A stretch of DNA of 64,000 bases, from NCBI GenBank assembly GCA_965116885.1, contig OZ220741.1, positions 4,320,001 to 4,384,000 of the forward strand, in the 5' to 3' direction. The notes beneath the pieces were generated by a model. That model was not told the DNA's origin. It saw nothing but the letters and a program-made list of their open reading frames with translations, and did not search any database. The translations under genes were made by a program, and so were the position numbers. The stretch is from Candidatus Latescibacterota bacterium (GTDB lineage Bacteria; Latescibacterota; UBA2968). This document shows positions 5,089-54,657 of this stretch, piece by piece (within the stretch, counting starts at the first letter, position 1; each line of letters starts with the position of its first letter).

Positions 5089-6768
5089 ATGCAGACCAAC
5101 TACGACGTCAACATGCAATTAGACGTAAAAGTGCCCATGCGAGACGGCATCAATCTCTCCGCCGATATCTACCTGCCTCGAGCGCGCGGTAAATTCCCCA
5201 CCGTGCTCATGCGGACGCCTTATGACAACAACGCCGACAACATGGTGGAAAAAGCCCGGCGGCTTGCCAACAACGGCTATGCCTGTATTATTCAGGACTG
5301 TCGCGGACGGTGGGACTCAGAAGGGGAATATTACGCCTTTCGGGAAGGCGAAGACGGATACGATACTCAGGAATGGATCGGCAAACAAAAATGGTGCGAT
5401 GGCAAAATCGGAATGGCCGGCAGTTCCTATGGCGGCACAGTCCAGTGGCGCAGCGCACCGTATCGCAGCCAGTATCTCAAATGCATCACACCCCGGGTTA
5501 TATGCACGGACTATTACTCCGGACTCGTCCACCCCGGCGGTGCTTTCCAGCTCAATGTCATGATGACCTGGGGCATGCGCACCAACGCCCGCACCGCGCA
5601 GACCATTGAATTTCACAACTGGACCGAAGCCTTTCGCGCATTGCCCCTCATCGAAATGGACGAACAGGCGGGCCGCAACCTGAATTTCTGGAAAGATTGG
5701 GTAGAACACGCCGCTTACGACGACTATTGGGAGCAATTCAACGACGAAACCAAATGGGGTGAAATCGCCGTCCCCGCGTTCAACATGGGCGGCTGGTACG
5801 ATCTTTACGCGGCACAGACCTTTACCAACTTCAACGGTCTGCGCCTGCACGGTCGCACCGAAGAAGCCAAAAAGAGCAAACTCATCGTCGGCCCCTGGCC
5901 ACATTCCCTCAGCCTATCACCCAAAACCGGTGACATTGACTTCGGCGCACCGTCAATGGTCGATCTGGAAAGCCTTGAACAGCGCTGGTTCGACCACTGG
6001 CTCAAAGGTATTGACAATGGCATCGCAGATGAACCGCCTTTGCGCCTCTTCATCATGGGCATCAACCAGTGGCGCGATGAACATGAATGGCCGCTTGCGA
6101 GAACCCGATGGCAAAAATGGCACCTGCACTCGGGCGGCAGTGCCAATACGCTACTCGGCAACGGCACGCTCTCCACAGCATCACCGGAGAACGAATCGCC
6201 TGATCGCTACACTTACGACCCTCACTACCCCGTCCCGACAATGGGTGGCAACAACTGTTGCTCACCCCACATCGTGCCGTGGGGGCCCTATGACCAGCGT
6301 CCCGTAGAGATGCGTAGCGACGTACTCTGTTACACCAGCGCGCCCCTTAAAACAGCCCTGGAAGTCACGGGTCCCATCAAAGCCGTCATCTACGCCGCTA
6401 CCGACTGCACAGACACGGACTGGACCGCCAAACTCGTCGATGTATCGCCCACCGGGTATGCCATGAACCTCTGTGACGGCATTTTGCGTGCGCGTTTTCG
6501 GGAAAGCCTCACCAACCCCACCTTGCTCAAACCCGACAGCGTCTATGCCTATGAAATTGACCTCGGCGTAACCGGCAACGTCTTCAAAAAGGGCCACCGC
6601 ATCCGCCTCGAAATATCTTCTTCCAATTTTCCCCGGTTCGACCGCAACCTCAATACCGGTGGTTCGCTGGGTCGTGAGACCGAGATGCGCCAGGCGCATC
6701 AGGCCGTCTATCACTCAAAAGCATACCCATCCCACATCACGCTACCCGTCATTCCCTGCGGAGAGTAA
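5089..6768 (+). CDS. CocE/NonD family (X-Pro dipeptidyl-peptidase S15-like) hydrolase
   Basis: VPMRDGINLSADIYLP, RTPY, GSSYGG nucleophile elbow, GPWPH, SSSNFPRFDRN; start set at ATG 5089 after AGGAGG. Confidence 0.92.
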   Translation: MQTNYDVNMQLDVKVPMRDGINLSADIYLPRARGKFPTVLMRTPYDNNADNMVEKARRLANNGYACIIQDCRGRWDSEGEYYAFREGEDGYDTQEWIGKQKWCDGKIGMAGSSYGGTVQWRSAPYRSQYLKCITPRVICTDYYSGLVHPGGAFQLNVMMTWGMRTNARTAQTIEFHNWTEAFRALPLIEMDEQAGRNLNFWKDWVEHAAYDDYWEQFNDETKWGEIAVPAFNMGGWYDLYAAQTFTNFNGLRLHGRTEEAKKSKLIVGPWPHSLSLSPKTGDIDFGAPSMVDLESLEQRWFDHWLKGIDNGIADEPPLRLFIMGINQWRDEHEWPLARTRWQKWHLHSGGSANTLLGNGTLSTASPENESPDRYTYDPHYPVPTMGGNNCCSPHIVPWGPYDQRPVEMRSDVLCYTSAPLKTALEVTGPIKAVIYAATDCTDTDWTAKLVDVSPTGYAMNLCDGILRARFRESLTNPTLLKPDSVYAYEIDLGVTGNVFKKGHRIRLEISSSNFPRFDRNLNTGGSLGRETEMRQAHQAVYHSKAYPSHITLPVIPCGE

Positions 6769-6769
6769 T

Positions 6770-8209
6770 ATGCCAGACTCTCGACCAAATATCCTGCTCA
6801 TCATGACCGACCAGCAACGCGGCGACTGCATAGGTCTCGACCCGTGTAGTCCACCGTGTCTGCAAACACCCAACCTGGACTGGATTGCCCGCACGGGCAC
6901 GCACTTTCACCGCGGATACTCCGAATGCCCCAGTTGTATCCCCGCTCGCCGCTGCCTGATGACCGGCACAGCACCTGCAGCAAATGGCGCTGTCGGATTC
7001 AAAAGTGCCCAGTGGCATCCACCTCACACCCTCGCTGGCGAATTGTCCAGGGCGGGATATCAAACAGAAATGATCGGCAAACTCCACCTATCCCCCGCCC
7101 GCAAGCGCTATGGCTTCGACCACATGCAACTGGCCGACGCCACCCGGGGCAGCCACAACGACTATGTCGAATGGCTACAGCAATACCACAAACGCAACGA
7201 AGTGCATCCCGGCATGGCCCACGGTATTTCCTCCAATGGATGGATCGGTCGCCCACACCACTTGCCCGAAGAACAGATGCACACCTTCTGGTGTATCGAC
7301 AGAGCAATGGACTTTCTCCAAAAACGCGATCCCACGGTTCCGTTTTTTCTCAACATATCCCTTATAGACCCCCATCCCCCGCTTACCCCCCCGGCTCTCT
7401 ATTACGACCGCTATATCCAACGGCGTTTGCCCGATCCCATCATAGGAGACTGGGCATCCGAATTTGACGGTCCTCAAAAAGGTCTCGACCCCAACGCCTG
7501 GCAAATTTGCCTTGACGAACACGACATGCGCTGTTCTCGTGCGGCTTATTACGGCATGATCAACTTTATAGACGACCAGATCGGCCGCCTCATTCAATAT
7601 GCCGGTGGTCTCAACAACTGCCTGACCATCTTCACATCCGACCACGGCGAAATGCTGGGTGACCACAATCTCTTTCGCAAAACCTGGCCATACGAAGCGT
7701 CTGCCCGAATTCCATTTCTCATGCGCGCGCCTAAAAACTGGGGGTACCCCGAAGAAATCACTTGCAAAAGCCCCGTCGGCATCCAGGACATTATGCCCAC
7801 TATCCTCGATGCGGCCGACATCGATATCCCCGAGACCTGCACGGGCAAAAGCCTCCTGCCCGTCATGCAAGGCGACACTGATCGCGTGCGGGAATTTCTA
7901 CATGGAGAACACGCTGGCTGTTATAACTACAACCACGGCAACCACTATGTCACAGATGGACACCACAAATACATCTGGTATTCTCAAACGGGTGAAGAAC
8001 ACCTTTTCAACCTGGACGAAGATCCCCATGAAATGCGCGACATTACGCGCAATCCCAACTCTGAAATACAACCCTGGCGAAATCGCCTCATCGAATTCCT
8101 CAAAGACCGTCCAGAAGGTTTTACCGATGGCACGCATTTGATCCCCGGCCAGCCCCACGAAGAACTCCTGCCAGGCTATGACCCCGAAGCGACCTACCCG
8201 TATTTGTGA
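6770..8209 (+). CDS. Sulfatase (arylsulfatase/choline-sulfatase-like, formylglycine type)
   Basis: RPNILLIMTDQQR, CIPAR (CxPxR), GKLH, FTSDHGEMLGDH; ATG 1 nt after the CocE stop. Confidence 0.93.
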   Translation: MPDSRPNILLIMTDQQRGDCIGLDPCSPPCLQTPNLDWIARTGTHFHRGYSECPSCIPARRCLMTGTAPAANGAVGFKSAQWHPPHTLAGELSRAGYQTEMIGKLHLSPARKRYGFDHMQLADATRGSHNDYVEWLQQYHKRNEVHPGMAHGISSNGWIGRPHHLPEEQMHTFWCIDRAMDFLQKRDPTVPFFLNISLIDPHPPLTPPALYYDRYIQRRLPDPIIGDWASEFDGPQKGLDPNAWQICLDEHDMRCSRAAYYGMINFIDDQIGRLIQYAGGLNNCLTIFTSDHGEMLGDHNLFRKTWPYEASARIPFLMRAPKNWGYPEEITCKSPVGIQDIMPTILDAADIDIPETCTGKSLLPVMQGDTDRVREFLHGEHAGCYNYNHGNHYVTDGHHKYIWYSQTGEEHLFNLDEDPHEMRDITRNPNSEIQPWRNRLIEFLKDRPEGFTDGTHLIPGQPHEELLPGYDPEATYPYL

Positions 8210-11470: not shown

Positions 11471-11508
11471 TTGATTTGTCTGGGGTTATTATGTACATTT
11501 CTGTACAT
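11471..11508 (+). promoter_or_regulatory. Putative TA promoter with two TGTACA operator palindromes
   Basis: TTGATT (11471) - 17 bp - TACATT (11494); TGTACA at 11492 and 11502 overlap or abut the -10. Confidence 0.6.
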
Positions 11509-11526
11509 AATTGTAAAGGAGGACAA

Positions 11527-11760
11527 ATGAAAACTGTGACTTTCACTGAATTTCGTCAGCATGCGGCGGCGTGTTTAAATGCCGTTGAACAGGGTGAGAC
11601 GTTTCGTATCTTGCGACACGGCAAGCCCGTCGCTGATTTAACACCTATAAAAACAGACAACTCTGTGCCTTCCTGGAAACGGTGTATTGAACCAATCAGG
11701 CTAAAAGGTATTTCTGTTTCAGATATGATAATAAAAGAAAGAGATGAGTACGGACGATGA
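11527..11760 (+). CDS. Phd/YefM family antitoxin
   Basis: MKTVTFTEFRQH...VEQGETFRILRHGKPVADL; SD AGGAGG; ATGA overlap with the PIN gene. Confidence 0.9.
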   Translation: MKTVTFTEFRQHAAACLNAVEQGETFRILRHGKPVADLTPIKTDNSVPSWKRCIEPIRLKGISVSDMIIKERDEYGR

Positions 11761-12179
11761 ATGCTTTTTTTGATTCTTCTGCCCTTGTCAAAAGATATGT
11801 TGAAGAAGATGGACGAGAAAGAGTTATCAATATCTTTGAAGAGGCAAGTGCTATAGGGGTAAGTGTTATCTGTTTTCCCGAGGTTATTTCGGCATTTTGC
11901 AGGTTACAGCGAGAAGGGAATTTGGACAAGCCTCAATATGAGCGAATTAAAGGCGATATGATTGCAGATTTTGAAGACTTCTTTATTTCTGCGATTACCC
12001 CACAAGTAAGAGGGTGTGTTACACGTCTTTTAGAAACATATTCTTTGCGCGCTATGGATGCACTGCACCTCGGAAGTGCTATTGAATGGCAAGCCGATAC
12101 CTTTGTTTCGGGAGACAAGCGTCAGATTATTGCAGCTCAAAATGAAGGATTAGATGTACTTGATATCCAGGATGAATAA
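11757..12179 (+). CDS. vapC: VapC family PIN-domain toxin
   Basis: FFDSSALVKRYVEE, LRAMDALHLGSA, FVSGDKRQ. Confidence 0.9.
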   Translation: MNAFFDSSALVKRYVEEDGRERVINIFEEASAIGVSVICFPEVISAFCRLQREGNLDKPQYERIKGDMIADFEDFFISAITPQVRGCVTRLLETYSLRAMDALHLGSAIEWQADTFVSGDKRQIIAAQNEGLDVLDIQDE

Positions 12180-12260
12180 GGTTTTTTCCCTCTTTTTTTG
12201 ACTTTGCTTTATTTTTATTTTTTAAGTCACTATTTACCGAGACCCAACAGGAGGCAAGCA

Positions 12261-12830
12261 ATGGACGTTTTGGAAGCCATTCACACGCGGCGCACAATTT
12301 TTAAGTTCAAACCAGGTGGTGTGCCCAAAGATGTAATCGAAAAAATTTTTGAAGCCGGTCTGTGGGCGCCCAATCACCATTTGACAGAACCGTGGCGGTT
12401 TGTAGTCCTGGGAGAAGAAACCAAAGAAATACTGGCGCAACGCTACAGCGAAATTCAGGAGGCAAAAGCGGCTGAAGGTGCCAGCGACGAGGCCAGGCGC
12501 ATATTAAAAGATGCCGGTTATGACAAGTTCATGTCAAAGCCCACAATTATTGCGGTGGCGTGTTTGCAAGATGGCGATGACATCAAGAACAGAGAAGATT
12601 ATGCGGCTGCGTGTTGCGCCATGCAAAATGTACAGTTGGCTGCCTGGGCAGAAGGGGTTGGCATGCAGTGGAGCACGGGGCCGATCACGCTGGAAGAAAA
12701 CACCTACAAATTGCTGGGTGTAGATACCGGGAACGAATACATCATCGGATTTTTCTATACCGGATATCCCGATGAAATTCCAGAACCGAGGCGCAAGCCC
12801 CTCGAAGAAGTACTGAGCTGGACGGATTGA
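12261..12830 (+). CDS. Nitroreductase family flavoprotein (YdjA-like)
   Basis: MDVLEAIHTRRTI, WAPNHHLTEPWRF, QNVQLAAWAEGVG; SD AGGAGG. Confidence 0.9.
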   Translation: MDVLEAIHTRRTIFKFKPGGVPKDVIEKIFEAGLWAPNHHLTEPWRFVVLGEETKEILAQRYSEIQEAKAAEGASDEARRILKDAGYDKFMSKPTIIAVACLQDGDDIKNREDYAAACCAMQNVQLAAWAEGVGMQWSTGPITLEENTYKLLGVDTGNEYIIGFFYTGYPDEIPEPRRKPLEEVLSWTD

Positions 12831-13654
12831 TTCCGCTAACCATGAATGGCTTTGAATTTTTTATCCTCTATCGCCTGCCCTATTTTGCATTGCCTTTCTA
12901 TCTTATCATGCTTGGCGTGCGAATATGGGTGTGGATGCGGTTTTACAACCCCGCGCTCAAGCTATTGCCACGCGCCAGAGGATCTGTATATGGCGTGTGG
13001 AAGCAGCAGTACCGCCCAACCATTCACATTTTTCCCGGATCGCGCTCACAAAGCACAGAATGGAAGCGTGCGATAAAAGGCTTTGTTTTTTTTATTGGTC
13101 TCTATAAGCGCGACAAAATACTGTGGCTGGGCTCCTGGTCCCTCCATTTGGGGCTGCTCCTAGTAATTGTTGCCCATGTCCGCGTGATTTTGCCGCTTGA
13201 CCTGGACCCAATCTGTTTGCGCATCGCATTGATCGGCAGTGGATTGATGGCAGTGTCGGGCACTTATTTATTGCTGCGTCGGATAATCGTTCAACGCGTG
13301 CGAGAAATTACAGACTTTCGGGACTATCTCGCGGAATTCATCCTCCTGTTTTTTTCTGCGACAGCATTTCTCGTGATGTTAGACGGTGGCGTGTCATCCG
13401 AAGCCCTGCGCCACTATGTATCTGGGCTGTTGATGAACACAGTGGAAGTTATTGAAGTGCCACACATTTTTGTCTGGCACATGCTCGCCGCCCAGCTCTT
13501 ATTGATGGTGATCCCATTTTCCCATCTGTTGCATCTGGGCGGGATTTTTTTCAGTCGCGAATTTCTGGGCACATCCGATACATTTGCGGGGGAATTTGGA
13601 TCGGGATTTTCAGGATTAAAGGATGAGCAGGATGAAAAGATGAAAAACTCGTAG
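12827..13654 (+). CDS. dsrM: DsrM/NarI-like membrane di-haem cytochrome b (start 12827 TTG or 12842 ATG)
   Basis: Several TM helices; His pairs SLHLGLLLVIVAHVR and WHMLAA...PFSHLLH; LLLRRI..QRVREIT..DY; directly upstream of a DsrK-like gene. Confidence 0.75.
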   Translation: MIPLTMNGFEFFILYRLPYFALPFYLIMLGVRIWVWMRFYNPALKLLPRARGSVYGVWKQQYRPTIHIFPGSRSQSTEWKRAIKGFVFFIGLYKRDKILWLGSWSLHLGLLLVIVAHVRVILPLDLDPICLRIALIGSGLMAVSGTYLLLRRIIVQRVREITDFRDYLAEFILLFFSATAFLVMLDGGVSSEALRHYVSGLLMNTVEVIEVPHIFVWHMLAAQLLLMVIPFSHLLHLGGIFFSREFLGTSDTFAGEFGSGFSGLKDEQDEKMKNS

Positions 13655-13711
13655 GGGCGGTGCGTGAACGGGTCTGGACAGCGCCCCGTTGTACACCGCT
13701 CGTGCCCGCCC
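13651..13711. repeat. GTAG-type REP-like element between dsrM and dsrK
   Basis: GTAGGGGCGGTGCGTGAAC...CGCCCC...GCCCGCCC; GTAG foot plus GGGCG/CGCCC arms. Confidence 0.45.
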
Positions 13712-13729
13712 ATCGCAGGGATTGAACGA

Positions 13730-15064
13730 ATGGAACGAGAAAAAAAATACATTCCATCGGGCCTGGCTGGCACGTATATGCGGCGCATTGCCGAATCGGA
13801 TCCGTTTGTCCGCGAGATCCAGGATGAACCGTCGGCATTGCGTTTGTACATGGATACGTGTACCAAATGTGGGGTGTGTGCGCAGGAATGCCCGGTGTAT
13901 TACGGGCAGCCCGATAAGCGTATGCATCCGGTGGAACGCTCTCGGCAAGTGATTCGTTTATACAAAAAATATACGACATTTTGGGGGCGATTTTGGAACG
14001 CCATTTTTCCAAAGCCAGATTTTGAAGATAATGATGCCGAGTTGTTTGCCGAGCGCATGTACGAGTGTTTGACGTGTCGGCGGTGTGCGGCATTTTGTCC
14101 TGTGGGAATCGATCATTCGGTGATCTCGCGCGTTGGACGCTCACTTGTCGATTTAATGGGTTTGACGCCGCCATCCCTTGCTCAGGGTACGCACAATTCG
14201 TTTGAAACAGGCAATTTGGAAGGTGCGTCAGCCGAGGCATTTTTAGACGCGATTCAATTTATCGAAGAAGAGCTCAAAGAAGAAACGGGACGAGATATTG
14301 CCATTCCCTTAGACCGCGAAGGCGCGGAAATTTTCTTTTTGCCACCATCGGGTGATGTGCTGGTTTATGCTGAAAACTTAATGGGTATGGCAAAAATTTT
14401 TCACGCCATCGGTGCCGATTGGACGATGAGCTCGCGGGCATTTGACGGATCGAATTTCGGATTTACGACCGGCAATAATTTTTCAATGAAGTACGAGAAC
14501 AAACACTACATCGACGCATGCGAAAAATTGGGATGTAAGATCATGGTAATGGGTGAATGCGGACATGCGTATCGGGTGATGAAGTTCATGGCCAGCGAAG
14601 GACGCTGGTGGGGTGCATTGCCTTTTGAGATTACCAGTGGGTTTGAATATACGGCACAACTTATTCGCACGGGCAAACTGAAATTGGATCCTGGCAAAAA
14701 TCCCGATCCCGTGACCTATCACGACGCTTGCCAATTTGCTGCCGGGTGCGGGATTGTTGAGGAACCCAGAGAGATTTTGAAAGCGGCCTGTGTCGATTAC
14801 CGCGAAATGCCCGATGGTGGGTACACGCAGTGGTGTTGCGGTGGTGGCGGCGGGTTATCGGCACTCCGCTCGGTGCGCGCGTTTCGAATGGAGGTCTCGG
14901 GCAAAAAGAAAGCAGAGCAAATGCGCGAGACCGATGCGGAGATCGTATCGACCTCGTGTTTGCAGTGCCGCACACAACTCAAAGAAATCGCGCGCCATCA
15001 CAAAATGCCACTAAAAATTACAGGTGTACACGAGTTGATCAACAATGCGATTGTACTGGAATAG
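13730..15064 (+). CDS. dsrK: DsrK/HdrD-like Fe-S protein (2x[4Fe-4S] plus CCG domains)
   Basis: CTKCGVCAQECP, CLTCRRCAAFCP, GECGH, YHDAC, WCCGGGGG, SCLQC; ATG 13730 preferred to GTG 13664, which lies in the REP-like DNA. Confidence 0.8.
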   Translation: MEREKKYIPSGLAGTYMRRIAESDPFVREIQDEPSALRLYMDTCTKCGVCAQECPVYYGQPDKRMHPVERSRQVIRLYKKYTTFWGRFWNAIFPKPDFEDNDAELFAERMYECLTCRRCAAFCPVGIDHSVISRVGRSLVDLMGLTPPSLAQGTHNSFETGNLEGASAEAFLDAIQFIEEELKEETGRDIAIPLDREGAEIFFLPPSGDVLVYAENLMGMAKIFHAIGADWTMSSRAFDGSNFGFTTGNNFSMKYENKHYIDACEKLGCKIMVMGECGHAYRVMKFMASEGRWWGALPFEITSGFEYTAQLIRTGKLKLDPGKNPDPVTYHDACQFAAGCGIVEEPREILKAACVDYREMPDGGYTQWCCGGGGGLSALRSVRAFRMEVSGKKKAEQMRETDAEIVSTSCLQCRTQLKEIARHHKMPLKITGVHELINNAIVLE

Positions 15065-15074
15065 CCTATAGCTC

Positions 15075-16292
15075 ATGTCTGATTTAATTTACATGGACAA
15101 CGCGGCGACGACGTTTCCAAAGCCCCCCAGTGTGCTGGAAGACGCGCTGGCATTTTATCGAAAATACGGGGTAAATCCCGGGCGCAGTGGCACGGATCTG
15201 GCGCGCGAGGCCGAGGCTATGGTCGCCGAAGCGCGTACATCACTCGCGTCGTTTTTTGGAGCCACGGGCAGTCCCGACCGGCTTGTGTTTACACACAATG
15301 CCTCGGATGCGTTGAATATTGCGATTCAGGGCACGTTGAAATCCGGCGATCACGTAATTACAACTTGTCTGGATCACAATTCGGTTTTGCGCCCGATATA
15401 CCATCTCTCAAAATATGAGGGAATTGAGGCGACTTATGTGGGCTTTGGGACAGATGGCTTTATCGACCCGGAGGATATTGATAGGGCGATCAGGCCAAAC
15501 ACAAAACTCGTCGTGATGACCCATGCATCCAATGTACTGGGCACTGTGCAACCCGTAGCAGCCGTCGGCGCAATCTGCCGCGCAAGCGGTGTAATTTTTT
15601 GCGTTGATGTGGCGCAAACAGCGGGCATGTTGCCCATTGATATGGAGGCAATGCAGGCCGACATTTTGTGTTTTACCGGACACAAGTCACTCATGGGACC
15701 AACGGGGACTGGTGGGATGTACGTGCGCGACGGGGTGACAATTGCACCGTTGCGATACGGCGGAACGGGTGTGCGATCGGAGTATCCCGATCACCTAAGC
15801 GAGTATCCCTGGCGATTGGAGTGTGGCACGGGCAACCTGATGGGTATTGCGGGGCTGTTATACGCGCAAAAATGGATGCAACGCAAAGGCATAGAAAATA
15901 TTCACGCACGCGAGATGGCTTTGTTCAAACAACTGGTCAATGGCCTGCGCGAAGTCGATGGGACCATTTTGTATTGCGCTGAAAATTTTGATCAACACGT
16001 ACCTGTATTGTCAGCCAATATCGAAGGGATGACTGCAAACAATGTGGGTACATTGCTGGATGTGAAGTTCAATGTGGCAACGCGTACGGGATTGCAATGC
16101 GCGCCAAAGGTACATGAAACTCTGGGTACGAAAGCGATGAAGGGTACGGTACGTATTTCATTGGGACCCTTTAATACCGAAGCACAAATTGAAACTGTGA
16201 TCGAGGGCTTGAGCGATATTTCCCAACGGCACGGACGACGCGATGTACAATTGCACCAGCAGGTAAAAGGTCAGGTGCGGAATGGCGTATGA
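15075..16292 (+). CDS. Cysteine desulfurase family protein (class V PLP, SufS/CsdA-like)
   Basis: IYMDNAATT, HNSVLRP, THASNV, DVAQTAG, FTGHK (PLP Lys), RTGLQCAP (catalytic Cys), GTVRIS. Confidence 0.9.
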   Translation: MSDLIYMDNAATTFPKPPSVLEDALAFYRKYGVNPGRSGTDLAREAEAMVAEARTSLASFFGATGSPDRLVFTHNASDALNIAIQGTLKSGDHVITTCLDHNSVLRPIYHLSKYEGIEATYVGFGTDGFIDPEDIDRAIRPNTKLVVMTHASNVLGTVQPVAAVGAICRASGVIFCVDVAQTAGMLPIDMEAMQADILCFTGHKSLMGPTGTGGMYVRDGVTIAPLRYGGTGVRSEYPDHLSEYPWRLECGTGNLMGIAGLLYAQKWMQRKGIENIHAREMALFKQLVNGLREVDGTILYCAENFDQHVPVLSANIEGMTANNVGTLLDVKFNVATRTGLQCAPKVHETLGTKAMKGTVRISLGPFNTEAQIETVIEGLSDISQRHGRRDVQLHQQVKGQVRNGV

Positions 16293-16605
16293 AATTGTGA
16301 CGCTGGGCGGCAAAGAAATTGAGGTAGATGAAGATGGATTTATCCAACAGCCCGAGCTTTGGGACGAAGATGTAGCGCGCGATCTGGCCCGACAAGATGG
16401 TATTGAAGAGATGAGTGAAGATCACTGGCAGGTCGTGTATTATATCCGCAATTATTGGTTGAAATTTGAAATCGCCCCATTGATCCGCCGCCTTTGTAAA
16501 GAGACGGAGAAAGATATCGATACAATTTACGACCTGTTTTCTGCTGGTCCCGCAGATGGCGCGTGTAAAATCGCAGGTCTGCCGACGCCTACGGGTTGTA
16601 CGTGA
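16282..16605 (+). CDS. dsrC: DsrC-family sulfur carrier with two C-terminal cysteines
   Basis: IEVDEDGFI, HWQVVYYIR, LFSAGPA, CKIAGLPTPTGC (Cx10C); overlaps the desulfurase stop by 11 nt. Confidence 0.9.
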   Translation: MAYEIVTLGGKEIEVDEDGFIQQPELWDEDVARDLARQDGIEEMSEDHWQVVYYIRNYWLKFEIAPLIRRLCKETEKDIDTIYDLFSAGPADGACKIAGLPTPTGCT

Positions 16606-16632
16606 TCATTAAACAAAAAAATAAGACAAAAA

Positions 16633-16911
16633 ATGAGGCCCAAAATGTCGTCTATAAAGATTGAATGTCCCGCCCACATTCTGGATGCCCTAAAAGAAAC
16701 TCCTGATGAATTTGCACGGGAAGCACGGATACTCTTGGCAGCAAAGCTATATGAAATTGGTCGCTTATCCTCAGGGAGAGCCGCGGAACTCGCAGGCTTG
16801 GGTAGAGTAGCTTTTTTTGATATGTTGAAGTCTTACAAAGTGCCTGTCGCAAATTTAACCCGTGAAGAGTTAAAAAAGGACTTTGAGAGTGCCAGGAAGA
16901 TGCGTGGTTGA
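16633..16911 (+). CDS. UPF0175 family (HTH antitoxin-like) protein; start may be 16645
   Basis: AAKLYEIGRLSSGRAAELAGL motif. Confidence 0.85.
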   Translation: MRPKMSSIKIECPAHILDALKETPDEFAREARILLAAKLYEIGRLSSGRAAELAGLGRVAFFDMLKSYKVPVANLTREELKKDFESARKMRG

Positions 16912-16934
16912 TGCAGACGATTTTTAGGCCGATA

Positions 16935-16968
16935 AAAATAGCGACCTCATTAATGAGGTCGCTATTTT
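16935..16968. terminator. Perfect 34-bp palindrome, likely bidirectional terminator between convergent operons
   Basis: AAAATAGCGACCTCATT|AATGAGGTCGCTATTTT with A/T-rich flanks. Confidence 0.8.
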
Positions 16969-16993
16969 ATTTTTTAAAATTTTTACATATGAA

Positions 16994-17893
16994 CTATTGC
17001 CCTGTACGCGCTTGAATATTCGACATATCTTCAATAATCGTGAGCAAACCCGAGTGGTCGAGTTCGCCGCGGCCTTTGACCATTGCGGTCTTAAAAAGCT
17101 CAAAAACCTCACTGGTAACGGGCAGGGGCACGTCGAAATCATTGCTCGTTTTCTGGATGATATTGAGGTCTTTGTAGTGCAGGCGAATGCGAAAGCCGGG
17201 ATCAAAATCGCCATTGACCATGCGCTCACCCCTGTTTTCAAGTACACCGCAGCGAGCGAGGCCCCCGCTGAGCACCTGAACGATTTTGATTGGATCAACG
17301 CCCGCTTTGGTACCCATTGTGAGGGCTTCTGATACACCGGCAATCGTGACGGCAACGAGGATTTGATTGCACGCTTTCACGGTTTGCCCTGCGCCGAGAG
17401 GCCCACACAAAATCGCACTTTGGCCCATAACGTCAAAGAGCGGTTTGACCGTGTTGAACGTGTCTTCATCGCCGCCAACCATAATCGAAAGGGTCGCGTT
17501 TTGGGCACCGATATCACCGCCGCTAACGGGTGCATCGAGACTTTGGACGCCTTTTTCCGCGAGCACCTCCCCCACCCTTGTGGTGACACTGGGCGCAATC
17601 GTGCTCATATCGACGAAAACCAGCCCCTCGTGCGCGCCTTCAAGAATACCCCCTTCGCCCAAAGCGACACTCTCGACATCGGGTGAATCGGGCAACATAG
17701 TGATAACGATATCGCTTTGCTCAGCCACCTCTTTGCCAGAATGCGCTTCTGCTGCCCCTTTACCCACGAGTTCATCGACCGCATCTCGATTGCGGTTGTG
17801 TACAACGAGTTCATATCCAGCATCTATCAAATGACCGGCCATCGGTTTGCCCATGATCCCGAGACCGATAAACCCAATTTTTGGCTTCGACAT
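16994..17893 (-). CDS. garR: 2-hydroxy-3-oxopropionate (tartronate semialdehyde) reductase / beta-hydroxyacid dehydrogenase
   Basis: IGFIGLGIMGKPMA, DAPVSGG, GAGQTVKACNQI, FDPGFRIRLHYKDL. Confidence 0.85.
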   Translation of the reverse strand: MSKPKIGFIGLGIMGKPMAGHLIDAGYELVVHNRNRDAVDELVGKGAAEAHSGKEVAEQSDIVITMLPDSPDVESVALGEGGILEGAHEGLVFVDMSTIAPSVTTRVGEVLAEKGVQSLDAPVSGGDIGAQNATLSIMVGGDEDTFNTVKPLFDVMGQSAILCGPLGAGQTVKACNQILVAVTIAGVSEALTMGTKAGVDPIKIVQVLSGGLARCGVLENRGERMVNGDFDPGFRIRLHYKDLNIIQKTSNDFDVPLPVTSEVFELFKTAMVKGRGELDHSGLLTIIEDMSNIQARTGQ

Positions 17894-17941: not shown

Positions 17942-18865
17942 CTACAACTTCCTCAACTCCGCAAGCGAGGGAAAGGCATGACTCTCCCACACCCGCACGA
18001 TCACTCCATCCACGATATAGGCCAGACGCGGATAGCCGTGCCCAAAGGTCAAGCGCTTGAAATCGACAAAAGAAATAGTTGCTATGGTAAAGCGCGGTCG
18101 AAACTGCATTTTGAACTGCGCGGTCACGGGATGATCTTTGGGATACTGGCTCAAAGCAATCAATCTGGGCACCTCTGGATCGGCAGCCCAGAAATTGAGC
18201 TTAGGCACGGCGGCCTGGCAATAGTGACAACTTGGACTAAACAACTCGATCAGATAGGCTCCACGCGTCAAATCGATATCTGTATCTAACAGGGATAAAC
18301 CTTTCAGATAATCGCCCACTTGCAGGTCTGAATCAGCTATTCGATCGCGCTCGGGCACATATCTAAAACCCAGTACAGCCAGAGCAACCAATCCACCGAC
18401 CAGAACCACCCACCTGCTCCATGCCCACAGCGCAACAGACCGCCGACGCAGCCCCCACCAGGAAAAGACCAGCAACCCCAGCATAATACAATTTTCCACC
18501 ATTGCCTCAGTTGGCGACCGATCCACCAGAGTACCAAAACACCCACAACTCTCCCCCATCCCCCGATGCAAGGCATGGGCGGTAATCGCGATAAAAAAAA
18601 CCATCATCACCACACCTATAGGCAAAACGAGACGCGGCTTCCAATCGACCAGAAGCGCGAGACCCACCAGGCATTCTAACGGGCCGAGCAACAGAGCCAA
18701 TTTGGCGACCATTTCCACTGTCTCGCGCCCGACAAAAATCTGGGCAGGCACCACAGCCTCCCAAAAAAAGAGTACGGGGTCCCATATCTTAGTCAGGCCA
18801 GCCACGAGAAAAACCACACCCATAATTCTCTGGCTTACCCACAGGCTCTTTTCTAATCCACTCAT
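17942..18865 (-). CDS. MauE/DoxX-like membrane protein fused to a thioredoxin-like domain
   Basis: VFLVAGLTKI, CGCFG motif, C-terminal FSPSCHYCQ (CxxC) and YP cis-Pro-like motif. Confidence 0.75.
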   Translation of the reverse strand: MSGLEKSLWVSQRIMGVVFLVAGLTKIWDPVLFFWEAVVPAQIFVGRETVEMVAKLALLLGPLECLVGLALLVDWKPRLVLPIGVVMMVFFIAITAHALHRGMGESCGCFGTLVDRSPTEAMVENCIMLGLLVFSWWGLRRRSVALWAWSRWVVLVGGLVALAVLGFRYVPERDRIADSDLQVGDYLKGLSLLDTDIDLTRGAYLIELFSPSCHYCQAAVPKLNFWAADPEVPRLIALSQYPKDHPVTAQFKMQFRPRFTIATISFVDFKRLTFGHGYPRLAYIVDGVIVRVWESHAFPSLAELRKL

Positions 18866-18879
18866 AGATGTTTCCTCTT

Positions 18880-19710
18880 TCAGTTAATAAATAACGGCTG
18901 ATCGGATCGCGGTACAATGTCCGCTTCTTCTGCACGCGCAAAAAGATCAACCAGCGCTGCTTTTCCGTCTGCGCCGTAATCCAGCGTGTATTCATTGACG
19001 TAGAGATCGATGTGCTGCTGCATCACGGCTTCGTCCATCTCCTGTGCGTGCTGGCGGATGTAATTTTTAACTGCATCGGGGTTTTCATGTGCATATTTCA
19101 CACTGGCGCAAAGAGATACATCAATTTGTTGAATTATTTCTTCGCCGAGATCGCGGCGGGCGAGAATACCACCGAGCGGAATGGGGTGTCCCGTAGCTGT
19201 CTCCCACCATTCGCCCAGGTCAATGACTTTGTGCAGACCATAATCGGGATAGGTAAATCGCGATTCGTGGATGATCACACCCGCATCAACGTCGCCTTTT
19301 TGCGTAGCCTCCATAATCTCGTCAAAAGGCATCGCCACGAGGTTGTCAAGCGCGGGATTAAAGAGACGCAGCAAGAGCGCGGCCGTGGTGAGTTCGCCGG
19401 GAATGGCAATGCGTTTGCCCAACAAATCGCGTGGATCAAGGGCATCAGACGCGATAACGAGCGGTCCACACCCACGCCCCAATGCCCCGCCTGAATGCAA
19501 CAGACAATAGCGATCGCGCATAAATGCGAGCGCGTGGAATGATATTTTGGTCATATCCAATTTACCTGCCATAGCCATGCGATTCAGGGTCTCGATATCT
19601 TCGAGAACCTCGCGGCATCTGGGCGCGCCATCTATTTTTTTGTGCACCAGACCATAAAAAATATACGTATCATTGGGACAGGGTGAATAACCGAGAGAAA
19701 TACGGGACAT
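18880..19710 (-). CDS. mqnD: 1,4-dihydroxy-6-naphthoate synthase (futalosine pathway)
   Basis: GYSPCPNDTYIF, GGALGRGCGP, IIHESRFTY, DLGEWWE, HIDLYVN. Confidence 0.93.
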   Translation of the reverse strand: MSRISLGYSPCPNDTYIFYGLVHKKIDGAPRCREVLEDIETLNRMAMAGKLDMTKISFHALAFMRDRYCLLHSGGALGRGCGPLVIASDALDPRDLLGKRIAIPGELTTAALLLRLFNPALDNLVAMPFDEIMEATQKGDVDAGVIIHESRFTYPDYGLHKVIDLGEWWETATGHPIPLGGILARRDLGEEIIQQIDVSLCASVKYAHENPDAVKNYIRQHAQEMDEAVMQQHIDLYVNEYTLDYGADGKAALVDLFARAEEADIVPRSDQPLFIN

Positions 19711-19723
19711 GGTAAACCTCGTG

Positions 19724-20443
19724 TCATAGAGCCTCAATGAATTTTCGCGCTGCAATTTGCACCCTCTGGACAGCGCGTGGAATATCCCAGGCGTCTTTAT
19801 TGCGATCTTCTACAAGATTACTAATAGCGCGCAATTCGAGAAATGGAACCGCATAAAGCGTGCTAATATGCGCCGCGGCAGCACCTTCCATGTTTTCGCA
19901 TATCGCATTGAACCGCGCTGCCAGTTCATTGCCAATATCCTCGCGTCCGGTGCATTGTTGCACCGTGACAAAAGGACCTTGCACAACGCATTCGCCCGAT
20001 TGTTCGAGTATGTGTTGCGCCCTGGCGACAAGCGCGGGATCGAGAGGATAAGTATTGTAATAATCGCGATCTATCGATAGGACGGGAATACCAATCTCAT
20101 CGGCAGGAAACCAGCCAGCAGGTGTGATGACGCCTAAATCGCCATAATTTTCTTCGGTCGCAAGTGCGAGATCACCCTTGTCCAGACCACTGCTGAGATA
20201 AGCACCTCCAATGCCGATTTGCAAGACGAGTTCAGGACCGATTTCCTGCAGTGCAACAGTCAGAGCCTGCGCCGTATTAACCGCGCCAATACCCGTTTCA
20301 ATCAGGACAACGGGCCTGATGCCAATCATACCGCGAACCCAGGCGCGATGTCCTATGCGCTGTATTGTCGCCTGTTGAAGGCTATCGCGCAAACGCTGTT
20401 GCTCATAAGCCGTAGCTGTCAGGATGAACAGAGGATCGGGCAT
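19724..20443 (-). CDS. mqnB: Futalosine hydrolase
   Basis: PNP/UDP fold TGIGAVN, GIGGAY, ENMEGAAAAH, ELRAISNLVEDR..WDI; adjacent to mqnD. Confidence 0.88.
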   Translation of the reverse strand: MPDPLFILTATAYEQQRLRDSLQQATIQRIGHRAWVRGMIGIRPVVLIETGIGAVNTAQALTVALQEIGPELVLQIGIGGAYLSSGLDKGDLALATEENYGDLGVITPAGWFPADEIGIPVLSIDRDYYNTYPLDPALVARAQHILEQSGECVVQGPFVTVQQCTGREDIGNELAARFNAICENMEGAAAAHISTLYAVPFLELRAISNLVEDRNKDAWDIPRAVQRVQIAARKFIEAL

Positions 20444-23394: not shown

Positions 23395-26088
23395 CTATTT
23401 CATCTCAAAATCACCCGAACCAATCACACGTTGTTCCACGCCCTCATCTCGAATGGACACAAACGCCGATGTCCGAATCTGAAACTGCACTGTGCCCTCA
23501 ATCTCTCGAAGCGGAAAAAAGCAATGCGCCATTCCCGTATTTGTGACGCGAAAACCGGGATCGTCTTCGAGAATGACGTGCTCACCCACCACGCGTTGAA
23601 CGCGCAACCCGCGCGTTGTACCATCGCCAAATGTCACAACAGCAACAGCGCCATCTATGTCATCCATTTCAGGCAGGCCATTCACGACCAATGCATGGTA
23701 CGGCGCACCATCCTCTATTCGCAATACATCTGTAACCTGCCCCGTATAGATACCACCACCTGTTAACCGAGTGGTTTGCCATTGCACCTTCTCCCCACCC
23801 CATAACCCCAGAACTCGCGCCTCCCCATCCTGTTCGCGCACAAAACCGACTTCGCCTTGAAATGTAAGATCGCCCATGCGAAAAACTTCTGTCCCGGATT
23901 GCAGAACAATATGATCCGTACTCCCCCGGTGGCGCACTTTCAGGTACACGCCGCGCTCGCCAATATCTTCCACCTCGACAGAATCGATAAACGCCTTATC
24001 CCGAAACGGCTCGTGAACAGCCATGAACCGACTCGGCGATCGACCTTTTTGTCGAACCATCAACATGGGCATGCGAAATTGATCGAGTAGCGGTTCGTCT
24101 TCGTCTGCACGCCGCACAGAGGGCGCGTCCCCCACAAAAAGTTTGCTATCCGCCAACCCCACAAGATGAATACGCACGGCAACAGCATCTCCGTGAAAAG
24201 TGACACGCGCATCCTGTACATGATCGCTATATGACACATTTTGAAAAAATGCAAGCGCGACATTTCGTCCTTCTGCATCCCCCTGGTCGCGTTCGTGTTC
24301 TGGGAACCGCACCTTCACACCCGGTAGCAGATTTTCACCATAGTGCTGCAAAAGCACATTGGTCTCTGTCCGCATATCGACATCCGCGCTTCCGTGCATC
24401 ACCCAATCGCGCTGATCGCCGCCCTGCACGCGAAACAGATCGACCACATAGTGATCCTCTCCCCCCACATTTACGAGCATGACCAACCGCCGATATTCTT
24501 CCGCCAGTCCGGGATACACATCTTCCCCACTCGCTTCTACCCATTGCACCGGGTCATAAGCGGCTTCAAATGCCAGCAGAGAACCATCTATAATACCCTT
24601 TCTATTGGAGCGTTCTTGTTCCCCTTCATCAATTAACACAGTATTGTGGCACAAGGTGCTCGTTGCCCAGCTTCGATATCGGGTATGGGTATAGCCCACA
24701 TCGGAGAGCAGTTCCTGTCCCTTAGCAAAAAGCATCAGATTCAAATTGTCCGCATGGGCATGCCCATAAGCCCCCGAAAAGTGCAGATGCACCTGCATTT
24801 GATGTTCGCCCTTTCCTCTCCCCAACCACGCATGTCCAATACCGGACAGCAGTGTCGGATGCGACTGTTCAAGCGGTCTGACATTGGGACCAACCCGTCG
24901 GCTATCCAACCGCGCCCAGGCATCGTGCATGGGAATCCATCGCCCATCTGGATATCTGCAAATATCCAGAAGCTGATTTGCCTTTCTCACAATGGCAATA
25001 TCTCGCTCTAAATCCAGTTCGTCGTATCGCACGCCATCGTCCGACACATAATCCAACGGATCGGAATACCCGTTCAGCGCGTCAAATACCACTTGCATAC
25101 CCGCCATTGTCATCCGGTGATACCCCAAACTGCCTTCATGCCAGAAGCCATCCGCATAAAATTGACGCTCAAACAGACCGATACTGCGTCGAATGGCTTC
25201 GTGAACGAGTTCTGGATCATTTAGCACGCGGCCAATCACCGCATACCCGACGTAAATCCGAGGGCTCGCATTGCCATAAGTGATCTCGTGAAAACCTTCC
25301 TGGCGAATGGCTCCGCGAAAAAAATCGTCCTCAATCCGCTTTTTCACATCTATCCCAATCGCATCGGACAATCGCTCCAATTCGCCACTTGTATAAATCG
25401 CATCGTAAGCCAGAGCCAGATTAGTCGGCATTTCATCTGCGCGCCACCGCCCCCATTTTCCTCCAAAATTTGGATAGGGTGGTTCAAGCACAAATCCCTT
25501 TTGTTCGTGTGCTCGATCATAACTCACCAGAAAACCCGGATAATACCGCGCGAATGCGTCCAGAATCAGCACCGCGCGTCGCGCATACGTCGCATCTCCC
25601 GTTGCCTGGTATAACTGCCCCAAATCTTCCGCAATCGCCGCAAAATACACGCGCGCTTCCCGCCACGCCTTTGCCCGAAAGTAATACCGAAATCCCGTCT
25701 CATCTTCCCAAAAGGGATATGTCACCGCATCACCTACCGGGTTTACAACTGTCTGTATCTGATTATCCGGATATCTCTCATTGGGAAACACCATCTCGCA
25801 ATAGCGACACTGTACGCGCTGTGGATCTTTAATTGACCATCGCAACTGCCCTTCCTGAGCACCAGCATCACAATCGGGACATCCCACAAATCGAAACCCC
25901 GTCTTATCGGGGATCAACGCCACCATCTCTGCTTCAGAAAGTGCCATCACCACTCGCACGCGCCGCTTCATACGCGCGACTTCCTTCTCGGTTAAGCTCA
26001 CCTGATAAACCGGGCGTTCAATGGCTTGCATAGCCAACACTCCTGTGAGAATTTGTATGGTAATTAAAAGAATTATACGTATTGACAT
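23395..26088 (-). CDS. Heparinase II/III-like polysaccharide lyase family protein
   Basis: DGFWHEGSLGYH, GHAHADNL, STLCHNTVLIDE; N-terminal CPDC/CRYC zinc-ribbon-like motif. Confidence 0.8.
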   Translation of the reverse strand: MSIRIILLITIQILTGVLAMQAIERPVYQVSLTEKEVARMKRRVRVVMALSEAEMVALIPDKTGFRFVGCPDCDAGAQEGQLRWSIKDPQRVQCRYCEMVFPNERYPDNQIQTVVNPVGDAVTYPFWEDETGFRYYFRAKAWREARVYFAAIAEDLGQLYQATGDATYARRAVLILDAFARYYPGFLVSYDRAHEQKGFVLEPPYPNFGGKWGRWRADEMPTNLALAYDAIYTSGELERLSDAIGIDVKKRIEDDFFRGAIRQEGFHEITYGNASPRIYVGYAVIGRVLNDPELVHEAIRRSIGLFERQFYADGFWHEGSLGYHRMTMAGMQVVFDALNGYSDPLDYVSDDGVRYDELDLERDIAIVRKANQLLDICRYPDGRWIPMHDAWARLDSRRVGPNVRPLEQSHPTLLSGIGHAWLGRGKGEHQMQVHLHFSGAYGHAHADNLNLMLFAKGQELLSDVGYTHTRYRSWATSTLCHNTVLIDEGEQERSNRKGIIDGSLLAFEAAYDPVQWVEASGEDVYPGLAEEYRRLVMLVNVGGEDHYVVDLFRVQGGDQRDWVMHGSADVDMRTETNVLLQHYGENLLPGVKVRFPEHERDQGDAEGRNVALAFFQNVSYSDHVQDARVTFHGDAVAVRIHLVGLADSKLFVGDAPSVRRADEDEPLLDQFRMPMLMVRQKGRSPSRFMAVHEPFRDKAFIDSVEVEDIGERGVYLKVRHRGSTDHIVLQSGTEVFRMGDLTFQGEVGFVREQDGEARVLGLWGGEKVQWQTTRLTGGGIYTGQVTDVLRIEDGAPYHALVVNGLPEMDDIDGAVAVVTFGDGTTRGLRVQRVVGEHVILEDDPGFRVTNTGMAHCFFPLREIEGTVQFQIRTSAFVSIRDEGVEQRVIGSGDFEMK

Positions 26089-32498: not shown

Positions 32499-33596
32499 AT
32501 GAACGACCTTGCAATCTATTTCACCACAAGCCTTTGCGCTGTGTACACCACGCTGATCGCCATTTTTTTCTTCGGTCTTTTTCGCAGATCGCGGCGAGTA
32601 AATGCACAGCGTCTATCTGTTTCCGTTATTGTACCTGCTCGCAATGAAGCCACCAACATCGATGCATGTTTGCGGGCATTGGCCTCACAGCCCTATCCTG
32701 CCGACCATCTGGAAATTATCGTTGTAGATGACCGCTCCACCGATGATACCGCCGCTCGAATCGACAAATGGACGCGCTGTTTACCCAACCTGAGTCGCGT
32801 ATCTGTCACACAACAGAACTACGCCTGCCCCAAAAAAAACGCCCTGTGGCAGGGCATCAAACACGCACGGGGAGATATTATTTTTACAACGGACGCCGAT
32901 TGTCGGCCCGGTCCCAATTGGATTGCGTCAAACCTCGCGTACTTTGCGTCCGATGTCGGCATGGTCATCGGCCACGCTCCCCTGCTGCAAAACGAAAAAG
33001 CCCTATCGGGCCTGCTGTCTCTTCAGGCACTCATTGTCTCAACTCTCGCAGCGGGCAGCGCGGGCATTGGATTTCCGCTCACTTGTTCGGGACGCAACAT
33101 GGCCTATCGCAGAAAGGCCTTTGATGAGGTCAACGGCTTTAACGACATCGGACACATCATCGGCGGCGACGATGTGTTGCTCATGCGCCAATTCGCGCAA
33201 AAAAGCGCGTGGAAAATTCGGTTCAACGCAGACGCCGATGCGTTCGTCCCCTCAGCGTCTCACCCGGACAATCTCATCAATCGACAGGTGCGCTACCAAT
33301 CCAAAACCATTCACTACGGCATTCCCACCTTGATTCTGGCTCTTGCGGTGTATATATTCCATGTCGTTCTGGCTACACTGCCCATTTTGTTCTGGACCAA
33401 CGCCGAATTATTTTATATGATCGGCTCTTGCCTGGGGATAAAAATAATCGCCGATGCCGTTTTTTTGCTCTTCGGCAGTATCCGCTTCAAAAGCCTGAAA
33501 TTGCTCCTGTGGTTTCCAGTTCTCGAAATCCTGATCATTCCCTATATTGTCATCATCTGCGCGCTCGGCACATTTACACCATTCAAATGGAAATAA
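32499..33596 (+). CDS. Glycosyltransferase family 2, membrane-anchored
   Basis: VIVPARNE, VDDRSTD, TTDAD, GGDD, degenerate RQVRY; TM helices at both ends. Confidence 0.9.
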   Translation: MNDLAIYFTTSLCAVYTTLIAIFFFGLFRRSRRVNAQRLSVSVIVPARNEATNIDACLRALASQPYPADHLEIIVVDDRSTDDTAARIDKWTRCLPNLSRVSVTQQNYACPKKNALWQGIKHARGDIIFTTDADCRPGPNWIASNLAYFASDVGMVIGHAPLLQNEKALSGLLSLQALIVSTLAAGSAGIGFPLTCSGRNMAYRRKAFDEVNGFNDIGHIIGGDDVLLMRQFAQKSAWKIRFNADADAFVPSASHPDNLINRQVRYQSKTIHYGIPTLILALAVYIFHVVLATLPILFWTNAELFYMIGSCLGIKIIADAVFLLFGSIRFKSLKLLLWFPVLEILIIPYIVIICALGTFTPFKWK

Positions 33597-33597
33597 T

Positions 33598-34656: not shown

Positions 34657-34719
34657 GGAATTAAGAATTAAAAATTAAGAATGGTTTGGCGGTGTAATCA
34701 CTTCACAGCCCCTCTTTTT

Positions 34720-34748
34720 CATCTGCGTCCATCTGCGTCCATCTGCGG
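34720..34748. repeat. 10-bp tandem repeat (CATCTGCGTC)x~3
   Basis: Read directly from the intergenic sequence. Confidence 0.8.
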
Positions 34749-34761
34749 ATCACACTTCTAA

Positions 34762-54646: not shown

Positions 54647-54657
54647 TTGTCACCTTC

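Follow-up and report, generated by a model that had tools for sequence, protein, structure and literature searches.

DsrC and DsrMK are generally taken to mark dissimilatory sulfur metabolism and to belong inseparably with DsrAB. Here we analyze a locus in which a DsrM-like cytochrome b, a DsrK-like Fe–S protein, a cysteine desulfurase and a DsrC are encoded side by side in a genome that appears to lack DsrAB. The locus lies at 12261–16605 of a 64,000-nt stretch of DNA (the window; contig OZ220741.1, positions 4,320,001 to 4,384,000, forward strand) from the metagenome-assembled genome (MAG) of a sponge-associated Latescibacterota bacterium; the MAG comprises one contig of 5.56 Mb and is 98.4% complete. 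The four genes, here termed the cassette, suggest a variant of the DsrC/DsrMK system that we did not find described in the literature, one that would provide a quinone-linked route from cysteine sulfur to sulfide. Among the papers covered as full text (subscription journals lie outside that coverage), there was none on a cluster of DsrK or DsrC with a desulfurase, or on dsr genes of Latescibacterota. One study mentions, without explaining them, a few DsrAB-lacking assemblies that have DsrM or DsrK (PMC10504309).

The cassette resembles the dissimilatory DsrC and DsrMK or DsrMKJOP of Archaeoglobus fulgidus and Desulfovibrio in its two-cysteine DsrC with a C-terminal GxCKxAGLPxPTGC arm, its DsrK motifs (two for cubane clusters, one CCG, and GECGH), its NarI-like diheme DsrM and its menaquinone context. 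It differs from them in that the genome lacks DsrAB, a desulfurase stands in the operon instead, and no dsrJOP-like genes lie beside it. Moreover, its DsrK and DsrM fall under their equivalog cut-offs, and its last CCG ligand is Cys rather than the Asp of A. fulgidus AF0502. With menadiol, DsrMKJOP converts DsrC-bound sulfur to sulfide (PMC10861901), and the DsrM of DsrMK-only complexes is predicted to oxidize quinol at a NarI-like outer site (preprint 10.64898/2026.08.25.746951). This type, DsrM-1, is marked by a NarI-like quinol site that is open, with neither blocking arginines nor a TMH3 loop (same preprint).

A second comparison is with the IscS–TusA–TusBCD–TusE–MnmA relay of E. coli, in which a desulfurase persulfide is likewise passed to the penultimate cysteine of a DsrC/TusE-family protein (PMC3397948). 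When E. coli IscS and cysteine are supplied in vitro, the penultimate cysteine of Allochromatium vinosum DsrC becomes persulfurated (PMC3397948). Unlike that relay, the cassette genome has no TusA or TusBCD, its DsrC has a second cysteine and a membrane redox partner, and its MnmA gene is unlinked. SufS–SufE and CsdA–CsdE are dedicated desulfurase–acceptor pairs, and the cassette shares with them an adjoining, translationally coupled class-V pyridoxal phosphate (PLP) desulfurase and small cysteine acceptor, with a contact predicted here. Its acceptor, however, has the DsrC fold, and its desulfurase belongs to family TIGR01977. HdrED of Methanosarcina and EtfD of mycobacteria are similar in joining a cytochrome b to a CCG Fe–S module that connects a cytoplasmic thiol or redox substrate with a quinone-like carrier in the membrane. 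EtfD differs in being a single fused chain that works towards menaquinone. HdrD, in turn, has a second CCG motif and acts on a small-molecule heterodisulfide (PMC10861901).

Gene content and conservation of the cassette

The original prediction described five co-oriented, closely spaced genes at this locus, and all five open reading frames (ORFs) are present on the + strand with the coordinates and tight spacing claimed. The first, for a nitroreductase-family flavoprotein (12261–12830, +; PF00881, 97.6 bits), overlaps by 4 nt the gene for a DsrM-like NarI-type diheme cytochrome b membrane anchor of 275 aa (12827–13654, +; PF02665, 43.5 bits). Next comes the DsrK-like Fe–S protein (13730–15064, +; Fer4_8 and CCG domains, GECGH). 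Its frame is open from GTG 13664 (13664–15064, 466 aa), but the likely start is ATG 13730, since the alignment of relatives begins there; this gives 444 aa. After a gap of 10 nt follows a TIGR01977 (EF2568) cysteine desulfurase of 405 aa (15075–16292, +; PF00266, 299.9 bits), with PLP Lys204 and catalytic Cys342. Its gene overlaps by 11 nt that of a 107-aa two-cysteine DsrC (16282–16605, +; PF04358), in which Cys95 is CysB and the penultimate Cys106 is CysA. A Pfam search of the window found no dsrAB, dsrJOP-like, DsrE-like or mnmA genes, in agreement with the first inspection of the DNA.

We surveyed gene order across 29 genome and metagenome loci with DsrK at least 70% identical, leaving loci cut by a contig end out of each count. 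The order dsrM–dsrK–csd–dsrC proposed for dsrAB-negative genomes was borne out: DsrM precedes DsrK in 27/27 loci, the desulfurase follows in 26/26 and DsrC comes next in 24/24. Down to 66–74% identity, all frames are intact and no catalytic residue varies. Among 168 genomes of the phylum, this type of DsrK is restricted to the window's family, where it occurs in 28 of the 30 other genomes and in 5 of 6 genera. DsrC is present in 28/31 family genomes, always as one copy that adjoins DsrK, and both are missing from one genus of the same family (g6, 2/2 genomes). The cassette was found in 0/138 genomes from the phylum's other 13 families. Distant DsrK-like matches in two of these families (G003 and G024; 28–30% identity) were rejected, as neither has DsrC or a desulfurase beside it; both contigs are short. 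In five near-complete relatives without DsrK, the closest desulfurase is only 30–31% identical to that of the cassette. These relatives thus lack the cassette-type desulfurase as well, which indicates that the desulfurase co-varies with the module.

The nitroreductase, which had been counted as a fifth component of the operon, proved to be a resident neighbor, and the conserved unit comprises four genes. In the 29 loci it is adjacent to dsrM in 18, lies 1.2–3.1 kb away with unrelated genes between in 4, and was not found in the available flank in 7. PhyH, MCP and enolase-like genes intervene in divergent genera, the nitroreductase is missing from two full-length flanks, and it is present at the empty site. 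There, in a cassette-less relative from a sister family (G052), it lies 29 nt from a dehydrogenase–mqnA–mqnB block; in genus g6, which belongs to the window's own family and has no cassette, nitroreductase and dehydrogenase block are 1.2 kb apart. Because the resident nitroreductase and dehydrogenase genes adjoin in relatives without the cassette, the four genes appear as an insertion between them. Judged from gene order, then, the cassette is a horizontally inserted unit of dsrM-like, dsrK-like, TIGR01977 desulfurase and dsrC genes, and the nitroreductase stands outside this unit, its gene having come to overlap the start of dsrM in the window's genus.

In RNA libraries from three studies, contigs span each junction between neighboring genes and match portions of all five. 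We regard this as a weak sign of expression, as DNA carry-over is possible. The same contigs show strains without the UPF0175 insert described below and without part of the repeat in the dsrM–dsrK spacer. Runs labeled as sponge metagenomes contain 38–51% of the sampled words of the stretch.

One could ask whether these genes have any joint function, or whether they are a chance neighborhood or what is left of a dsr locus in decay. In favor of this, members of the family can do without the cassette. But the intact frames, invariant catalytic residues, strict order (26/26 and 24/24), overlap of the desulfurase and dsrC genes, and coverage of the genes by RNA-library contigs make this explanation highly improbable.

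Hallmark residues and genome background

The DsrM-like protein scores over the PF02665 cut-off. The four heme-ligand histidines ascribed to it were confirmed as H107, H117, H218 and H236, invariant in 87/87 DsrM homologues, with spacings of 10 and 18 that we take to match those of NarI. An AlphaFold2 model (pLDDT 76.8, pTM 0.71) was compared with folds in the Protein Data Bank (PDB). The best eight matches were all E. coli NarI (E 7.6e-5 to 2.3e-4; target-normalized TM 0.63–0.70), and the ninth was EtfD. A PDB sequence search with the DsrM-like query gave no match. The NarI fold, the four axial histidines and the adjoining DsrK-type gene are all features of a NarI-type diheme cytochrome b. The gene is single copy in the genome, as is that of the DsrK-like protein.

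In the DsrK-like protein (466-aa numbering), the predicted ligands of two [4Fe–4S] clusters form two CX2CX2CX3C motifs (C66, C69, C72, C76; C135, C138, C141, C145). These and the five CCG cysteines (C356, C391, C392, C432, C435) are invariant in 33/33 homologues; the motifs themselves agree with those first noted. The protein also has the conserved GECGH (G297-E-C299-G-H301), whose cysteine is singled out as catalytic and as the hallmark of DsrK-type proteins that have one non-cubane cluster (PMC10861901; preprint 10.64898/2026.08.25.746951). It thus has the full DsrK hallmark set, with one CCG motif besides the pair of canonical [4Fe–4S] motifs and the GECGH cysteine. The final CCG ligand is Cys (CLQC), whereas a control DsrK has Asp (CAID). 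A. fulgidus AF0502 likewise has Asp500 instead of the last CCG cysteine, yet A. fulgidus DsrK homologues of dsrMK sets have Cys there, and both residues may work (PMC10861901). We therefore dropped the lack of an Asp500 equivalent as a bar to DsrK membership. Having Cys there puts the protein in the DsrMK-only group and is no ground for excluding it from DsrK. A sequence search of a PDB copy that did not hold the preprint's DsrMKJOP structure gave mycobacterial EtfD (9ojn) as the sole match.

The DsrC call was upheld by PF04358 (114.2 bits, cut-off 24.9) and TIGR03342 (109.5 bits, cut-off 53.5). The C-terminus, GACKIAGLPTPTGCT, holds both cysteines, C95 and C106, which align with both cysteines of solved DsrCs. 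CysB lies eleven positions upstream of the penultimate CysA, both in the window and in each of the 27 Latescibacterota-type cassette loci from which dsrC was recovered. The closest PDB sequences are DsrCs of sulfite/sulfate reducers (E 1.4e-31 to 4.1e-21), with Pyrobaculum, Archaeoglobus and Desulfovibrio at 1.4e-31 to 1.6e-24 and a TusE-like sulfurtransferase at 7.2e-8. The cassette protein shares 60–70% identity with DsrCs of 105 aa from other phyla, and 54% with one from a canonical dsr locus. By these sequence marks, it is a bona fide two-cysteine DsrC. An invariant third cysteine, C72, touches the desulfurase in the contact model described below and was considered as a signature of linkage to the desulfurase; this was rejected because the DsrC of a canonical dsrN–dsrC–dsrM–dsrK locus has C72 too.

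A second DsrC cysteine is, with few exceptions, restricted to organisms with DsrAB (PMC3397948). The cassette DsrC, the only DsrC of its genome, does not co-occur with DsrAB: a search of the full genome, as had been called for, gave nothing over the dsrA or dsrB cut-off, and dsrA over the cut-off was found in 0/31 genomes of the family. The sole NIR_SIR protein of the genome, a 742-aa ORF with two such domains, was considered as a hidden sulfite reductase and rejected; it is of the NirA family and lies beside glutamate synthase (gltB). Thus both this complete genome and the bacterial family as a whole retain a two-cysteine DsrC and a DsrMK-type complex without DsrAB, and with a desulfurase in its place.

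Might this DsrC instead be a TusE-like carrier that delivers desulfurase sulfur to MnmA, or to some other enzyme for thiolation or cofactors, with DsrMK merely re-reducing it? In biosynthesis, desulfurase-to-carrier pairs are the rule. DsrC and TusE share family TIGR03342, MnmA is present, and some sources label close relatives 'tRNA 2-thiouridine synthesizing protein E'. Yet DsrC scores 76.1 bits to the TusE equivalog NF008562, under the cut-off of 191, and matches a TusE-like PDB chain at 7.2e-8 versus 1e-31 for DsrC. Both DsrC cysteines are kept in all 27 loci, and neither TusA (PF01206) nor the DsrE/TusD family (PF02635) has a match in the whole genome. MnmA lies 4.3 Mb from the cassette and is also present in 5/5 relatives without it, and the relay has no role for a membrane cytochrome b. 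On balance, we consider a biosynthetic relay improbable.

The desulfurase was said to be of the SufS/CsdA type with the motif RTGLQCAP. The motif stands: R337, G339, L340, C342 and P344 are invariant in 60/60 desulfurase relatives, as are the PLP lysine K204 and catalytic C342. The type does not, as the protein belongs to TIGR01977 (422.8 bits, cut-off 377) and falls under the cut-offs for SufS (253.4/475.1 bits), CsdA (146.8/607 bits), IscS and NifS. It is the single TIGR01977 member of the genome, the three to four other desulfurases being 23–31% identical, and it is 55–58% identical to TIGR01977 proteins of other Latescibacterota, Planctomycetes and Sphingobacteriales.

The second-best NCBIfam match of the desulfurase is SclA (331 bits, 8.6e-99), which raises the question of whether it acts as a selenocysteine lyase, with DsrC carrying selenium and DsrMK releasing selenide for SelD. 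The genome does encode SelD, with an in-frame TGA (G000:C1:607704-608627, on the source contig), so selenophosphate synthetase itself appears to be a selenoprotein. However, the SclA score is under the cut-off of 525, and no selenium gene lies beside the cassette. SelD with an in-frame TGA occurs in 52/53 genomes of the order, with two TGAs in G062, whether or not the cassette is present; SelD is found in 2/2 genomes of genus g6 and in 22/22 of family f2, all without the cassette. Selenium use therefore shows no co-variation with the cassette, and we give this role only a slim chance.

The closest relatives of the DsrMK pair, ∼50% identical, form a large metagenomic family with the order MerR–DsrC-like–DsrM–DsrK, for which the papers examined gave no description. 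These clusters are alike in being nearest in DsrM/DsrK sequence and in pairing with a DsrC-family gene. They differ in having a DsrC-like protein without CysB, a fused double DsrC, macro-domain and HdrD::REC proteins, and only rarely a desulfurase (in the flank of 3/73 loci). Their DsrC-like proteins keep CysA, have Tyr in place of CysB (GAYR) and carry an extra Cys in LFPCG. In the flanks of the 73 loci (L039–L111), a dsrB match occurs in 3 and dsrN plus dsrL-like genes in 5; the dsrB of L048, the only dsrB match of the 3 checked against NCBIfam, passes the NCBIfam cut-off. The DsrC-like neighbors and occasional dsrB, dsrN and dsrL-like genes thus tie this DsrMK subfamily to DsrC-type proteins, at times in real dsr loci.

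Such clusters, with a MerR/HTH_17 regulator, often add a fused double DsrC that ends in GACRxAGLPFFA (CysB only). Macro-domain proteins and fusions of an HdrD-like protein with a receiver domain (HdrD::REC) are also frequent.

A candidate DsrC cycle and the direction of electron flow

We modeled contact between the desulfurase and DsrC by co-folding a desulfurase dimer with DsrC. The score was 0.65, versus 0.00 for the best of 3 controls; custom alignments and a chain entered twice set this prediction apart from the calibration of the tool, in which the mark was reached by 116/157 solved complexes and 2/215 mismatched pairs. Runs share at least 71% of contacts, and partner pLDDT is at least 86. 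The confidently modeled interface involves desulfurase residues 320–331 and 385–386, beside the Cys342 loop, and DsrC residues 67–72, 79–83 and 87–92, the last of these at the foot of the arm on which Cys95 and Cys106 sit. The model thus supports binding between the two proteins.

We tentatively propose that the cassette encodes a DsrC cycle that runs without DsrAB, in which DsrC is charged with sulfur from cysteine and DsrMK reduces that sulfur at the expense of menaquinol. The PLP enzyme would take sulfur from L-cysteine to form a persulfide on its own Cys342, and DsrC would then receive this sulfur on the penultimate Cys106 of its flexible C-terminal arm. The sulfane sulfur could then leave as H2S in either of two ways: through attack by Cys95, giving a Cys95–Cys106 disulfide, or at the GECGH cysteine and non-cubane [4Fe–4S] cluster of the DsrK-like subunit. 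DsrK would regenerate the DsrC dithiol, with electrons passing from menaquinol through the two hemes of the NarI-like DsrM to DsrK. The net reaction would be L-cysteine + menaquinol → L-alanine + H2S + menaquinone, and it would be electrogenic if, like NarI and DsrM-1, the cassette's DsrM oxidizes quinol on the outer face. The proposal draws support from gene content, catalytic residues, DsrAB absence, strict synteny, gene co-variation and the controlled contact model. Sequence and modeling thereby lend partial support to the earlier interpretation, in which the desulfurase takes the place of DsrAB and DsrMK releases sulfide.

Several observations, in addition to the calibration of the co-fold, weigh against this proposal. 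We infer every step of the mechanism, as well as the direction of electron flow and the physiological role. The top NCBIfam match of the DsrK-like protein is DsrK (NF045796; 312.7 bits, ahead of TmcB at 221 and HmcF at 201), yet this is under the equivalog cut-off of 400; the control DsrK, from a dsrN–dsrC–dsrM–dsrK locus, scores 663.6 bits. Similarly, the closest NCBIfam for the membrane protein is DsrM (NF038037), but at 44.3 bits, under the equivalog cut-off of 300, as compared with 331.6 bits for the control DsrM from the same type of locus. The nearest curated relative of the desulfurase is the selenocysteine lyase SclA, in a selenium-using genome. The cassette is missing from sister genus g6 and from other families, which shows that it is dispensable. 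Energetics is the weak point: the desulfurase product is a persulfide and not the trisulfide made by DsrAB, and menaquinol lies at about -70 mV, while the potentials of DsrC-bound sulfur are not known (PMC10861901).

Electrons might also flow the opposite way, with the DsrMK-like complex oxidizing DsrC (dithiol plus desulfurase-derived persulfide) to a trisulfide or disulfide and passing electrons to menaquinone. Oxidized DsrC would then be a carrier or store of sulfur(0), for an unspecified acceptor. EtfD, the only solved relative found, a sequence match of DsrK and a fold match of DsrM, delivers electrons into menaquinone, which makes the reverse direction possible for the cassette and counts against the cycle proposed above. 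In sulfur oxidizers, Dsr proteins run in reverse, and a sulfite-oxidase-family enzyme is encoded 30 kb off in the window. Electron transfer from a thiol or persulfide to menaquinone is downhill, whereas it is uncertain whether transfer the other way, as in the cycle proposed above, is feasible (PMC10861901). Against these points, we found no enzyme that would use DsrC trisulfide (no DsrAB, DsrE or TusA), and none is conserved beside the cassette. Opposite flow therefore seems unlikely to us.

If the chemistry of the DsrAB-free cycle holds, it would be a new path by which organic sulfur becomes sulfide, one coupled to the respiratory chain. The DsrC/DsrMK module would work and move between genomes alone, which bears on models of Dsr assembly (PMC10504309), and dsrC or dsrMK in metagenomes would be unsafe as evidence of sulfite or sulfate respiration. 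A stronger version, that cells carry out energy-conserving cysteine-sulfur respiration in which L-cysteine sulfur is the terminal acceptor of a menaquinol:DsrC oxidoreductase, strikes us as doubtful. Were it true, the DsrC/DsrMK half would be a stand-alone, laterally mobile respiratory module without DsrAB, and sponge symbionts would have a hidden source of H2S.

Neighboring genes and other features of the window

As first noted, genes of the futalosine route to menaquinone lie ∼2 kb from the cassette: mqnA and a gene for an mqnB-like phosphorylase were found 2.3 kb downstream (18880–20443, −; PF02621, 280.1 bits; PF01048, 106 bits). They are beside the cassette in most loci and are also present in relatives without it, and we regard them as conserved context, not as cassette members. 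A gene kept beside mqnA/mqnB in most loci (17942–18865, −) encodes a MauE-family membrane protein with a CxxC motif (SPSCHYCQ) in its C-terminal half, which may be a quinone-linked thiol-disulfide oxidoreductase.

The nitroreductase gene (window 12233–12837) has a second copy 1.75 Mb away (G000:C1:2582052-2582656), with 96% DNA and 97% protein identity. The surroundings of this copy are unrelated (FMN_bind, PepSY_TM and an unknown 239-aa ORF), and the duplication spans the gene alone. In the dsrM–dsrK spacer lies a short GC-rich repeat of 63–70 bp with internal inverted repeats (13651–13720, no strand assigned). Its second genomic copy, 93–95% identical, is found between two ABC exporter genes (G000:C1:2545328-2545397). 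Several contigs end or branch at the repeat, and one RNA-library contig skips 13663–13702.

Toxin–antitoxin-like inserts lie on both sides of the cassette, Phd/PIN upstream (11476–12179) and UPF0175 downstream (16633–16911). Both are strain-variable; RNA-library contigs skip 11769–12224 and 16613–17001. A scan for promoters and terminators gave counts no higher than shuffles (5 vs 7.5; 5 vs 6.6), its sole standout being a stem-loop at 16935–16968, 3' of the UPF0175 gene.

Farther off, the sulfite-oxidase-family molybdoenzyme (Oxidored_molyb and Mo-co_dimer domains) is encoded at 46144–47439 (−). A low-GC island at 52391–56466 (0.35–0.38 vs about 0.51) holds two large genes with a GmrSD N-terminal (DUF262) restriction-endonuclease domain and is probably an acquired defense island. 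The window also encodes a sulfatase (6659–8209), a heparinase II/III-like protein (23395–26088), and two GT2 glycosyltransferases around a radical-SAM/SPASM gene (32499–35877), a set of genes consistent with a lifestyle of degrading sulfated polysaccharides.

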